Origin: a virus
Lineage: Duplodnaviria; Heunggongvirae; Uroviricota; Caudoviricetes
Reading direction: 5' to 3' (one strand)
DNA: 26,360 nt
Virus record (IMG/VR): IMGVR_UViG_2534682078_000020
Shown: positions 10,529 to 13,632 of the stretch, piece after piece
How positions within the stretch are numbered: position 1 is the first letter of the stretch
Layout: each line of letters begins with the position of its first letter
Translations under genes and position numbers: made by a program
The notes under the pieces: model-generated
The model's database searches: none
What the model saw: the letters and a program-made list of their open reading frames with translations, nothing else
Told to the model about the DNA's origin: nothing

Positions 10529-11275
10529 TTACTTCACAACCCTCTGATTGCTGACATTTGGACGCCAGCTATCCCAGTTAAACGTCACCCACCGACCACC
10601 GTTCATGGTCATGCGGTCCATAATCCTCTCACCAAGAAGCGTGCTCATTGCGGCATGATTCAGGTTTGTTAACATCCCGACACTGCACAGTGATGCTGTC
10701 CGGCGATCAATTATCTGGTGTAATACCACCTGCTCGTTTTTCGTCTCCCGCTGAACGCCTATTTCATCCAGGACCAGCAAATCAACACTGCAAAGCTCCT
10801 GTAAAAATTTTTCCCCGGATTTGCCGTTGTCGTAGCTGTCATGCAACACGCTCATGACATCAGACACGGTGACGATAATCACGCTGCGCCCCTTCGCCAT
10901 CAGCCGGTTACCCATCGCCGCTGCAAGGTGATTTTTCCCGGTGCCGGTTTTACCGCTGAACACAAAATTCGTGCACCCGGTCATCAGTTCGTCAGCTATG
11001 GATTTGGCCTGGCTCAGCGCGTATTTTTGCCCGTCGTTCTGCACCTGATAATTCGCAAACGAGCATTTGCTGTGCAGAGGCTGGATGCCCGAACGATTCA
11101 GGATTTTTTCCACCCGCAACTGGTGATTCTGGCGGTTAATCTCCTCGCTGCGTTTTCGTCCTTCAACAAGTTGCCATTCCCGCCACTCCTCCACCGTCCG
11201 GTACGGTGGAACCGACGCCTGTGGTGCAAGTCTGCGAATACGTTCAAGAACCCCGGCTGCCGCAATGTTTTTCAT
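10529..11275 (-). CDS. DnaC-like replicative helicase loader (phage P-function analogue)
   Basis: Walker A FSGKTGTGKNHLAAAMG, Walker B LLVLDEIG, overall DnaC/IstB layout. Confidence 0.9.
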   Translation of the reverse strand: MKNIAAAGVLERIRRLAPQASVPPYRTVEEWREWQLVEGRKRSEEINRQNHQLRVEKILNRSGIQPLHSKCSFANYQVQNDGQKYALSQAKSIADELMTGCTNFVFSGKTGTGKNHLAAAMGNRLMAKGRSVIIVTVSDVMSVLHDSYDNGKSGEKFLQELCSVDLLVLDEIGVQRETKNEQVVLHQIIDRRTASLCSVGMLTNLNHAAMSTLLGERIMDRMTMNGGRWVTFNWDSWRPNVSNQRVVK

Positions 11276-11281
11276 GCCACA

Positions 11282-12358
11282 TCACCCCCTGAATCCCGGC
11301 GGAATTTCGGTATCCGGTTCAGAAATATGATTCACACAACGCTGGTTGTTCGTGCCGCTTACCGGGAGCAACCAGGGGTTTTCAAAATTCCGGTCCGGCC
11401 CAAAAAACGTCGTCGCTCGCTGAACAAATTCCGTTCCCGTTTTCCCGGTAGCCGCCAGGTATCTTGCGTAACGCCTCACACCATCCAGTATGGCCTCTGG
11501 TGGCACCCCCTCGCGTAATCTGGCCTTCCAGGCACTGAAAGCGGATTTCTTCGGGTTTGCCCCAGCACGCAACGGGTATTCCCGCCAGACCTGTTCGAAC
11601 ACATCCGGATAATCCACTCGTCCCACAGGCTGCCCGGTGTTTTCCGGGACTACCCGATCGGCTTCCCGCTGAATGGCGGAATCGGCTTCAGGCTGCTGCA
11701 GTTGGTGTGATTGCTCCGGCCTTGCGGTCATCACCTGCTGCACAGCGCCCGAATCGGCTTTCAGCGCATACGCTGAATCGGCTTCCGGTGTCGTGCCTGC
11801 TGGCTGACCAGGATTGACGGTCTGAACATCCCCTGCCTGGTTCGTGGCGTTTTTTACGCCATGGACCATAGTGTTTTGATCTTCTTGATCTGTATCTTTA
11901 TCTGTATCTTTATCTGTCGTGACTCGTCGTGACATGTGCGTGACATTTCGTGACGCGCCGTGACAATCGCCATTTTGTTCCCGCTTTCTTTCCCTCTCTC
12001 GCTGCGCCCTCTTGCGCTCTGCAGGAGATTTTGCGGTTTGCGAAATATTGCCGTTGTCCTCTTTAAGCACCTGGCGTTTTTCCCATCCAGTGATTAAATC
12101 ACCATCAAGTACCCGCCCCTGCATCGTCTGCAAAATTGAATCAATTACCTCTTCTGTCACGTCGAGCGCACTTGCCAAATCTTCTGTCGTGACATCAATG
12201 TGACCTCGCGTGACATTTCGTGACGCGCTCACCAGGAGGTGGATATACACTGCCATCACTGTTGCAATTGGCTGCCCTGACACCCTGGCAATTGTTCGCC
12301 ACTTAGGGTCATTTGGCATGTCATGCCATAATCTGAGCCAGGCGTTAGCCATACTCAC
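11282..12358 (-). CDS. Replication initiator (O-like), containing the origin iterons
   Basis: 358-aa ORF immediately upstream of the DnaC-like gene; contains two iteron clusters and an AT-rich stretch. Confidence 0.7.
   Translation of the reverse strand: MSMANAWLRLWHDMPNDPKWRTIARVSGQPIATVMAVYIHLLVSASRNVTRGHIDVTTEDLASALDVTEEVIDSILQTMQGRVLDGDLITGWEKRQVLKEDNGNISQTAKSPAERKRAQRERERKREQNGDCHGASRNVTHMSRRVTTDKDTDKDTDQEDQNTMVHGVKNATNQAGDVQTVNPGQPAGTTPEADSAYALKADSGAVQQVMTARPEQSHQLQQPEADSAIQREADRVVPENTGQPVGRVDYPDVFEQVWREYPLRAGANPKKSAFSAWKARLREGVPPEAILDGVRRYARYLAATGKTGTEFVQRATTFFGPDRNFENPWLLPVSGTNNQRCVNHISEPDTEIPPGFRG
11918..11964. repeat. Iteron cluster 1: five CGTGAC repeats at 10-11 bp spacing (putative ori), next to an AT-rich ATCTGTATCTTT repeat (11888-11915)
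   Basis: CGTGAC at 11918, 11928, 11939, 11949, 11959. Confidence 0.7.
12188..12224. repeat. Iteron cluster 2: four (C/T)GTGAC repeats at 10-11 bp spacing
   Basis: CGTGAC at 12188, TGTGAC at 12199, CGTGAC at 12209 and 12219. Confidence 0.6.
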
Positions 12359-12423: not shown

Positions 12424-12849
12424 TCAATGTACTGCCACAGCATTTCCTGCCGGGCCACCACGGTTCATCTGATTGAAACCGGCGATTGCCACTGCGACAA
12501 AATCATCAGCGTCTCTCACCAGTCGCTCCCGCGTCTCCACCAGCTCCCGAAAATAAGCTGAACTGTGGCTGCGCATTCTGGCCACCAGCAAAGGTGGCAT
12601 TGCCTTTTCGATCGCTGGTAACAACGCCTGAATTTTTTCAACTGCATCAGGGGTGTCTTTCTCTACCCAGCGGAAAATTTTCTGGGTATTGCGAGCCAGG
12701 GCTTCCGGATGGCTGTCGTCATACAGTTCAGGAAACGTCATACCCAACTCAAAATAAGCCTGGGTTATTCCAGCTGCTGGAACTTTTTCGCCATCAGGAC
12801 GCGCCCAGGCATTCATCGCCATGCGGATGTGTTCATGCTTGATTTTCAT
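12424..12849 (-). CDS. YdaT-like protein (CII-position regulator of Rac-type immunity regions)
   Basis: 141 aa starting MKIKHEHI..., which I recall as the YdaT N-terminus; sits directly downstream of the Cro-like gene. Confidence 0.55.
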   Translation of the reverse strand: MKIKHEHIRMAMNAWARPDGEKVPAAGITQAYFELGMTFPELYDDSHPEALARNTQKIFRWVEKDTPDAVEKIQALLPAIEKAMPPLLVARMRSHSSAYFRELVETRERLVRDADDFVAVAIAGFNQMNRGGPAGNAVAVH

Positions 12850-13114
12850 GAATCAAGCTCCTAGTAAGTGGTTGTGTTAACGTTTTGGTATCTTCCAGCT
12901 CGGGCCAAATATTCATCCAATCAAAAGGCCTTAGTTGCTGACGTGTAACTTCACCATTACTGGCTCGCTCAATAAGGACACATAACGATGCCCCTAACAT
13001 TTGACCTTTACTCAATGCCTTTCTTAGATAACCGATGCTAGTACCACACTCACATGCAAACATACGCTGTTCATCTGACGAAAGAGAATTGAGAAATATT
13101 CTTAATTCTTCCAT
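12833..13114 (-). CDS. Cro-like HTH regulator (YdaS-like)
   Basis: 93 aa; HTH region and ...IERASNGEVTRQQLRPFDW resemble YdaS-type Cro analogues; divergent from the repressor gene. Confidence 0.6.
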   Translation of the reverse strand: MEELRIFLNSLSSDEQRMFACECGTSIGYLRKALSKGQMLGASLCVLIERASNGEVTRQQLRPFDWMNIWPELEDTKTLTQPLTRSLIHENQA

Positions 13115-13140: not shown

Positions 13141-13190
13141 AATACCCACAGGTAAACAAAAGTCAATACCCTTGGGTTGTTTACCTTGCG
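13141..13190. promoter_or_regulatory. Immunity-region operator/promoter region between Cro-like and repressor genes
   Basis: Inverted repeat AGGTAAACAA (13150-13159) / TTGTTTACCT (13177-13186); degenerate copy of the ATACCC..GGGT operator motif (CAATACCCTTGGGTT) plus an AATACCCA half-site. Confidence 0.4.
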
Positions 13191-13213
13191 GTAATCGCAT
13201 CTATTATTTACCT

Positions 13214-13632
13214 ATGGACAAATATGAATTTAGACGACAACAACTCATCAAAATTCGTGATGAGAAATGCGATGGTAAAGCGGTTAACGTGGCCAGAAAG
13301 ATCGGTCGCGAGCCTTCTTATGTATCAAGAATGTTGTACCCAGAGGGGAAAAAGGAAAAAAACGGATCGCTGATGATATGGTGGAGATTATAGAAGAGTC
13401 CTTTGGGTTACCCCGGGGATGGATGGATGGTATCGTTTCATCATCAACGAACACAGCCTCCAATTATGAAACAAGGGTTCTAACGCCACGACAACGTATT
13501 TTTTTAGATCTCTTAGACGAACTGCCAGAAAGTGAAGCGGATAACTTATTAAAAACTCTTGAAGAGAAAAAACAGTATTACAATATGATCTACGAAGAAA
13601 TCCGTAAAAAGAAAGCACAAAACGCATCATAA
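13214..13632 (+). CDS. CI-like prophage repressor, split into two frames at an A7 run (13356-13362) as assembled
   Basis: ORFs 13172..13393 and 13378..13632 fuse if the A7 run is A8; N-terminal HTH (KAVNVARKIGREPSYVSRML); leaderless-type ATG at 13214. Confidence 0.55.

Follow-up and report, generated by a model that had tools for sequence, protein, structure and literature searches.

Introduction

Phages lambda and SPP1 provide experimental proof that a replication origin can lie inside the gene for the initiator (PMC7466680, PMC5737612). In ori-lambda, iterons and an AT-rich tract occupy the middle of gene O, in the segment that codes for the linker between the DNA-binding and recruitment domains, and in Stx phages extra iterons lengthen the O protein (PMC7466680). 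In SPP1, oriL consists of boxes and an AT-rich unwinding element inside gene 38, with G38P as a non-AAA+ replisome organiser, and oriR is described as a discrete region elsewhere in the phage genome (PMC5737612). The Rac prophage of Escherichia coli K-12 carries an active origin, oriJ (PMC3945230). Here we describe two arrays of short direct repeats within the replication initiator gene of a lambdoid prophage, contained in a 26,360-nucleotide stretch of DNA (IMG/VR record IMGVR_UViG_2534682078_000020; all of this stretch is referred to as the window). Comparison with homologous loci indicates that the prophage very probably has a theta-type replication origin at these repeats, inside its own initiator gene.

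Two arrays of direct repeats within the initiator gene

The initiator gene (11282-12352, minus strand) starts at ATG 12352 in the annotation of the Prokaryotic Genome Annotation Pipeline (PGAP) and encodes 356 aa. The mechanical open reading frame (ORF) begins at GTG 12358 (11282-12358, 358 aa); homologues, too, start at ATG 12352. Residue numbers given here follow the 358-aa numbering. Both arrays, as well as an AT-rich tandem repeat, lie entirely inside this gene.

Array B (11918-11964, minus strand), which adjoins the AT-rich tract, contains five GTCACG cores in gene sense, seen as CGTGAC on the + strand with starts at 11918, 11928, 11939, 11949, and 11959 (spacing 10, 11, 10, and 10 bp). 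It codes for aa 132-147 in a disordered linker; together with the tandem repeat it codes for aa 132-160, the start of that linker. Array A (12188-12224, minus strand) lies upstream and consists of three exact GTCACG cores (CGTGAC starts at 12188, 12209, and 12219 on the + strand) plus one GTCACA variant, TGTGAC at 12199-12204, with spacing of 11, 10, and 10 bp. It codes for aa 45-57, corresponding to the end of helix 31-47 and the loop preceding a helix-turn-helix. A single inverted core (12156-12161, GTCACG on the + strand) is found 27 bp downstream of array A in gene sense, where it overlaps codons D66-V67-T68; it occurs at the same gene position (nt 198) in many loci of the GTCACG class described below.

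A sequence-only reading of the window had reported five copies of CGTGAC in one cluster and four in the other. The first count is correct; the second is correct only if the TGTGAC variant is included with the three exact copies. The spacing of 10-11 bp given for both clusters was borne out by motif enumeration, which yielded only 10- or 11-bp steps. The hexamer is not equally dense elsewhere: of the 14 + strand copies of CGTGAC in the window, 8 fall within 337 bp, where 0.08 would be expected from the rate outside. Indeed, CGTGAC clusters more strongly than any other hexamer of the window: 5 copies lie within 50 bp and 8 within 340 bp, compared with maxima of 4 and 5 over 200 first-order Markov simulations.

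The layout in homologous loci

We collected 63 loci from species-representative genomes with homologues of the N-terminal domain (N-domain) of the initiator at 37-98% identity, and classed 52 of them by their repeat word. The hosts include Escherichia, Shigella, Rahnella, Serratia, Pantoea, Pseudomonas, Bordetella, Acidovorax, Stenotrophomonas, Chromobacterium, Janthinobacterium, sphingomonads, and Acidobacteriota. The same layout recurs in prophages of more than 50 bacterial species. Array A occupies codons 45-58 (gene nt ~135-190). Some 230 bp further downstream, in the part that codes for the linker (nt ~350-500), lies array B, and past it come a purine-rich AT tract and then a GC-rich palindrome. 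An equivalent of array B is present in essentially all homologous loci, and array A has at least 2 copies in 49 of the 52 classed loci. The distance between the arrays ranges from 168 to 340 bp and is mostly 205-250 bp. The sequence-only reading had taken two separated clusters as unusual and as a possible sign of a duplicated or bipartite origin. They are not a peculiarity of this prophage, as the layout is common to about 50 species-level relatives. We also rejected the idea that the arrays arose by a recent local duplication: both are at conserved gene positions in relatives that are 45-98% identical.

Across loci, neighbouring units are spaced by 10 nt in 154 cases, by 11 nt in 35, and by 20-21 nt in 18, the last leaving room for one degenerate unit between. 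Only a core of 6-7 bp is conserved, while the 3-4 nt spacers vary. The words fall into four classes: GTCACG (27 genes, including that of the window), GTAACG (6 loci), (C)GAACGC (18), and ACTACG (2, array B only), all of which contain xxxACG(C). In the GTCACG, GTAACG, and CGAACGC classes, arrays A and B of each genome use an identical word. Words differ between N-domain subfamilies, with both arrays changing jointly.

The initiator is modular. Pseudomonas phages phita81A and P7869 share only aa 3-140 with it (69.5% identity), whereas in E. coli phage PhiR5_2 and Shigella phage 75/02 Stx the shared part is confined to aa 160-358. In phage phita81A, the C-terminus and the downstream gene are different ones, and the immunity region is of the cI/cro kind. 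Its gene nevertheless has four GTCACG cores at the position of array A, the inverted copy, and four more cores at the position of array B, followed by gataaagatacagaagaagag. Judged by these comparisons, the arrays travel with the N-terminal DNA-binding domain.

Variants from Escherichia albertii and E. coli (P0016/L004) have an array A that is longer by 21 bp, or 7 codons (SRNVTTCHGVSLRGHI), equal to two units. Gain and loss of units seems to be limited to such 21-bp steps, which keep the reading frame.

An AT-rich tract and a palindrome follow array B

Directly past array B lies an AT-rich, strand-asymmetric tract (11869-11917) with its purines on the gene-sense strand, which we propose as the DNA unwinding element. 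The sequence-only reading had noted an AT-rich tandem repeat next to the iterons, and Tandem Repeats Finder placed it at 11883-11917 as a 12-bp repeat, TCTTTATCTGTA x 2.9 with 95% matches. In gene sense it reads (AAAGATACAGAT)n and codes for DKDTDKDTD. This stretch is the GC minimum of the gene (0.33-0.35 vs about 0.55), with an AT skew of -0.63. Among the classed loci, a purine tract of the AGA[TG]A type begins no more than 25 nt past array B in 47/52, with a mean purine fraction of 0.77 on the sense strand, and the lowest-GC 30-bp window of the gene starts no more than 31 nt past the end of array B in 44/52 (counted by eye from sorted offsets). Variants of the tract include (GATAAA)n, (GATACA)n, and (GAGAAG)n. 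The tract is read in each of the three frames (in 39, 4, and 4 loci) and is therefore a feature of the DNA.

Past the tract is a GC-rich palindrome (11838-11868), TGGTTCGTGGCGT-TTTTT-ACGCCATGGACCA. As a single strand, its + strand hairpin has a predicted energy of -10.9 kcal/mol (z -5.3). Family members have palindromes such as tacccccCTGAgggggta and tctaccccTGACggggtaga after the tract. When the best perfect stem was scored in the 100-nt stretch from 15 nt past array B, the mean score for a hairpin-capable inverted repeat was 14.3 vs 9.5 in control windows of the same genes.

Read on the + strand, and thus antisense to the initiator gene, the palindrome of the window also matches a simple intrinsic-terminator pattern, with a 13-bp stem that includes G-T pairs, a T5 loop, and the tail TAGTGTTTTG. 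For that one part, a + strand terminator might be the alternative explanation.

An origin dependent on DnaA was rejected, as there is no cluster of DnaA boxes near the unwinding tract. Allowing one mismatch or none to TTATNCACA, we found 21 matches in the window vs 24.7 expected, none of them within 11400-12350. A likeness of GATCTGTATCTTT to the oriC 13-mer does not exceed chance: one match to the 13-mer consensus with 2 mismatches is present at 11887-11899, but there are 15 matches window-wide vs 12.7 expected.

Synonymous sites under the repeat cores

Repeats within a coding sequence may be a by-product of coding: either a repeated peptide (SRNVT...VTT, DKDTDKDTD) or slippage in a low-complexity linker could produce them with no function of the DNA. 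Two observations fit this idea. Similar peptides, SASRNVTRGHIDVTTED and GASRNVTHMSRRVTTDKD, are encoded by the two arrays, whose register differs by 270 bp (90 codons), and the 12-bp repeat is in frame.

The reading frames argue otherwise. In array B, the 10-11 bp period sets the hexamer in all three frames (tGT CAC Ggc, gcG TCA CGa, GTC ACG, atG TCA CGa, GTC ACG), and the peptides encoded by successive cores are CHG, ASR, VT, SR, and VT. In addition, the linker peptides differ among homologues while the DNA word is kept, and the tract, as described above, occurs in all three frames.

Synonymous sites point the same way. Using 24 non-redundant GTCACG-class genes from hosts of 34-69% GC, we determined how often the same codon is used given the same amino acid. 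This rate is 0.81 in codons 44-58, which cover array A, vs 0.39 in the rest of the N-domain. It reaches 1.00 at V49, T50, G52, H53, and V56, and the spacer codon R51 is at 0.28. Four-fold degenerate codons under the cores are 100% identical despite the range of host GC, whereas flanking codons drift. Under the inverted core, V67 is at 0.99. From this comparison, the cores are under purifying selection at synonymous sites. Because the 10-11 bp period places the hexamer in three frames and the synonymous sites are invariant, the repeat acts at the level of DNA. The reading-frame and synonymous-site tests thus contradict a peptide repeat, and we regard an origin of the arrays as a mere coding by-product as extremely improbable.

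The claim of the sequence-only reading that an origin with iterons and an AT-rich tract lies inside the initiator gene gains support from every computational test that was run: the reading frames, the frozen synonymous sites, the joint travel of arrays and N-domain, and the joint change of words. Taken together, the comparisons are strong evidence for an origin of the iteron type, presumably bound by the initiator.

The initiator protein

The initiator matches phrog_3729, 'replication initiation protein', from end to end (E 1.6e-257), and has weak matches to two PHROG families named 'replisome organizer', phrog_4880 (E 5e-6) and phrog_5968 (E 2e-4). Its NCBI name is 'phage replisome organizer'; PGAP uses either 'hypothetical protein' or 'phage replisome organizer'. 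A Pfam scan of the 358-aa protein returned 0 families at E <= 0.01 and thus no match to the lambda O family, Phage_rep_O (PF04492). The same scan gave no match to DUF1376, unlike the case of Rac YdaU, and the N-domain corresponds to no family in Pfam or NCBIfam.

We built an AlphaFold2 model with an alignment of 50 sequences. The N-domain (aa 5-98) is predicted with confidence (predicted local distance difference test score 83-97) and contains three helices, a loop (48-57), helices 58-65 and 69-79, and a beta hairpin (80-91). In the model, this layout is winged-helix-like. Beyond it are a basic helix (112-128), a disordered linker (130-245), and a confident C-domain (246-335).

The C-domain, assigned to aa 246-358, is DnaT-like by profile comparison. 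The family profile (alignment A2) matches the C-terminal single-stranded DNA-binding domain of DnaT (6aep_A, E 3.2e-5; also 2ru8_A and 9zbt_D) over its last ~100 positions, including the terminal SEPDxxIPPGFRG. With the NCBIfam model for DnaT, only the last 24 residues of the initiator match, far under the cut-off.

The gene had been called O-like. This holds for function, whereas the protein has no match to the lambda O family in Pfam, its C-domain is DnaT-like, and the adjacent loader gene is of the DnaC type and not P. Because there is no Pfam match, we consider the initiator O-like in function only and not a homologue of lambda O.

Outside the codons under array A, the GTCACG class departs from the CGAACGC class at two places. 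One is an indel of 9 residues (aa 103-111 in the window numbering) that separates wing and basic helix; the other is Q119 vs W, within the basic helix and shortly upstream of array B. Both are candidate specificity determinants, or mere phylogenetic markers.

Alternative roles of the arrays

Several observations weigh against the conclusion that the repeats mark an origin, or limit what can be drawn from the comparisons. Array A is missing, with array B and the tract kept, in L040, L041, L057, L064, and L049/L061. Conversely, a gene that fuses the N-domain to an HNH domain (L148) keeps array A without array B or tract. The covariation of words with the N-domain is partly built in, since array A overlaps the codons of this domain and array B is linked to it. 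The distance between the arrays appears phased at 10.0 bp (R = 0.54), which is only suggestive in a set of related loci analysed without correction for ancestry; in the same manner, the difference in palindrome scores (Mann-Whitney p = 4e-7) was obtained with loci treated without correction for relatedness. A Foldseek search of the PDB with the N-domain gave nothing significant (best E 1.3), the weak top matches all being winged-helix DNA binders. Finally, no description of the origin family of the window was found in the searchable literature, outside which most subscription journals lie, and an older one is possible.

The first two of these points bear on a different role. The arrays could be operator or roadblock sites through which the initiator or another regulator autoregulates the initiator-loader operon, with the true origin elsewhere. 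Array A is early in the coding sequence, its retention in the HNH fusion gene is without an adjacent AT tract, and lineages with B but not A indicate that the arrays can be uncoupled. However, the purine-rich AT tract and palindrome past array B are what would be expected of an unwinding region, and there is no hexamer cluster of similar strength elsewhere in the 26-kb window. Autoregulation and origin function are also compatible with each other. We consider it quite unlikely that the arrays serve autoregulation in place of an origin.

Alternatively, the arrays might serve another process and be bound by a different factor, for instance a host protein or one for partition or packaging, or they might be the target of a nuclease like the HNH fusions. 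Consistent with this, 7 of the 120 N-domain homologues listed are HNH-fused, indicating that the domain has been reused outside initiators. Against it, the arrays persist from Enterobacteriaceae to Acidobacteriota amid varied neighbouring genes, with the N-domain as their sole constant partner. A role with another factor seems very improbable to us.

The fusion gene itself (L148:3001-3546, a Logan SRR27947145 contig) keeps four GTCACG cores and has the HNH domain (PF01844/PF14279) directly after the wing. It is a separate gene, immediately upstream of an initiator gene of the PhiR5_2 type. The HNH-fused proteins in our set are P0043, P0061, P0062, P0075, P0105, P0106, and P0114. Such a fusion could be a nuclease aimed at the origin iterons of related phages, for homing or exclusion.

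Returning to the origin, array B together with the tract, and perhaps the palindrome, looks like its core. Array A looks like an accessory or control site, because a few lineages keep B without A. Its role may not be origin firing, because it is absent in some lineages that have B and is kept in the HNH fusion without B or tract.

Proposed mechanism

The anatomy, its conservation, the selection on DNA, the covariation of words between arrays A and B, and the domain identities are results of this analysis; that the initiator binds and melts the DNA, that a helicase is loaded, and what array A does are inferred. The following mechanism combines this anatomy with the precedents of lambda and SPP1. 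The initiator would be made from the early operon, in which a Cro/YdaS-like gene, a CII/YdaT-like gene, the initiator gene, and the gene for a DnaC-like loader follow one another. Its N-terminal winged-helix-like domain would bind the 6-7 bp cores GTCACG(C/A). Because the cores recur every 10-11 bp, one face of the helix would carry all the bound domains of an array, with five of them at array B and, ~230 bp upstream, four at array A. The nucleoprotein array at B, possibly with A brought together with it, would then destabilise the adjacent 50-bp AT-rich polypurine/polypyrimidine tract. The DnaT-like C-domain may hold the single strand, recruit host DnaB via the phage DnaC-like loader, or do both, and theta replication would start after helicase loading.

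A bolder version is that the origin is bipartite and self-referential, with array A serving both as a binding site and as the code for the loop beside the helix-turn-helix, and with looping between A and B over ~230 bp. In its favour, array A codes for exactly the residues (aa 47-50 and 53) by which the GTCACG class is best told apart from the CGAACGC class. Moreover, in a comparison that omits these codons, three genes of the CGAACGC class fall inside the GTCACG clade. We view this version as unlikely. If it were true, a change of word would rewrite the loop in the same mutational step, coupling the specificities of origin and initiator, and new incompatibility or immunity types could emerge rapidly.

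Prophage setting

A lambdoid prophage located beside tRNA-Ser/mtfA in E. coli E2863 (NZ_AP018802.1) matches the window at 99.93% identity. The initiator gene is present at >=80% coverage in 1647 of 5426 complete E. coli genomes. On the minus strand, the gene order is Cro/YdaS-like (12833-13114), CII/YdaT-like (12424-12849), initiator, DnaC-like AAA+ loader, and DUF1627. The loader gene (10529-11275, minus strand) is directly downstream of the initiator gene and matches NF009043/PRK12377 (E 5e-153), PF01695 (IstB), and phrog_50. With the DnaC equivalog NF005931, its product scores 298 bits, under the cut-off of 357. The gene downstream of the initiator is thus of the DnaC/IstB AAA+ type and not the P-type loader of the lambda module.

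A repressor-like gene (phrog_5736; 13172-13632, + strand) is divergent from the Cro-like gene and is split into two ORFs in the window. The split corresponds to an A missing at 13349; E. coli E2863 has a single 139-aa coding sequence. Three further single-A differences from E2863 are at 17971, 22575, and 23880. The single-A differences are either homopolymer sequencing errors or real frameshifts.

Near the prophage end, a 21-bp tandem repeat (GAAACAAAACGAGCCAGAAAC x 4.3, 74% matches) at 17473-17563 lies where a truncated exonuclease pseudogene meets an integrase that is also truncated.

Discussion

A phage origin inside the initiator gene is a textbook arrangement; the particular architecture found here and its covariation across the family appear to be undescribed. 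Searches of the accessible literature led no further than the paradigms of lambda, Stx phages, and SPP1. In the annotated regions that we retrieved, no origin feature is listed, and most of the replication modules we met are without an origin annotation. An origin defined by its core word, two arrays, unwinding tract, and palindrome would let the replication of the prophage be mapped after induction. The specificity classes GTCACG, GTAACG, and CGAACGC could be used for vector pairs with compatible origins and initiators, and the natural switches of word, mirrored in both arrays, offer a ready-made experiment on the co-evolution of initiator and origin. The system would also allow study of how a non-AAA+ initiator opens DNA and hands it to a DnaC-type loader via a DnaT-like domain.

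Clustered direct repeats that co-vary with the initiator, as GTCACG, GTAACG, and CGAACGC do here, are the general mark of an iteron origin. Iteron plasmids can have two groups of iterons, one at the origin and one at a control locus, as in P1 (incC and incA), and the phage-plasmid P4 has ori and crr. The prophage locus resembles these replicons in having direct repeats, presumably bound by the replicon's own initiator, and a second, separated group. It differs in that the repeats of the plasmids are ~19-22 bp long (8 bp in P4) and flank the rep gene. The second group of an iteron plasmid controls copy number, in keeping with a plasmid lifestyle.

The likeness to SPP1 lies in repeated boxes and an AT-rich element within the gene for a non-AAA+ initiator, and in the proposed recruitment of a separate loader and helicase. 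The window initiator, however, has no match to a replisome organiser in Pfam and only the weak PHROG similarity given above, SPP1 brings its own helicase, and the second array of the window is ~230 bp away inside the same gene.

In lambda, a palindrome follows the AT-rich region, and the iterons, four or more, are units of roughly 19 bp with internal dyad symmetry. The window shares with lambda a putative origin in the middle of the initiator gene, over the segment for the interdomain linker, and a repeat array followed, in the direction of transcription, by an AT-rich tract. As in lambda and Stx phages, expansion of repeats lengthens the protein, seen here in the 21-bp, 7-codon expansion of array A in P0016/L004. 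In contrast to lambda, the iterons are cores of 6-7 bp at 10-11 bp spacing and not ~19-bp dyad units, a second array lies ~230 bp upstream within codons for the DNA-binding domain, and the loader is DnaC-type, not P.

A comparison with Rac-type prophages had been proposed as a check. The order of genes is the same as in ydaS-ydaT-ydaU-ydaV: Cro/YdaS-like, YdaT-like, initiator, a DnaC-like loader of the YdaV type, and DUF1627/YdaW-like. The ydaU gene (L146:2620-3477) has repeats of its own: TGTTCAAACA occurs twice in direct orientation (gene nt 393 and 426), once inverted (~nt 451), and once in partial form upstream (nt 149). After the repeats come aataaagatacagataaagatct and a C7/G5 palindrome, with aataaagatacagataaagat as the same tract as in the window; YdaU likewise ends in ...IPPGFRG, as DnaT does. 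However, the N-domain of YdaU is DUF1376, which is unrelated, and the repeat word is different. A mapped position of oriJ at the sequence level was not found in the searchable literature; the ydaU repeats are a plausible position for it. By this comparison, Rac ydaU is the same downstream half joined to a different specificity module.

The 'O' gene of PhiR5_2 (L002:2003-3085) has a third type of N-domain on the same C-domain and two groups of words ~250 bp apart. The first has AAGGGGC at gene nt 185 and 196; the second has the reverse complement of this word at 441 and 452, with (GAACAG)n after it. A wider set of initiator genes may have such separated word groups in common.

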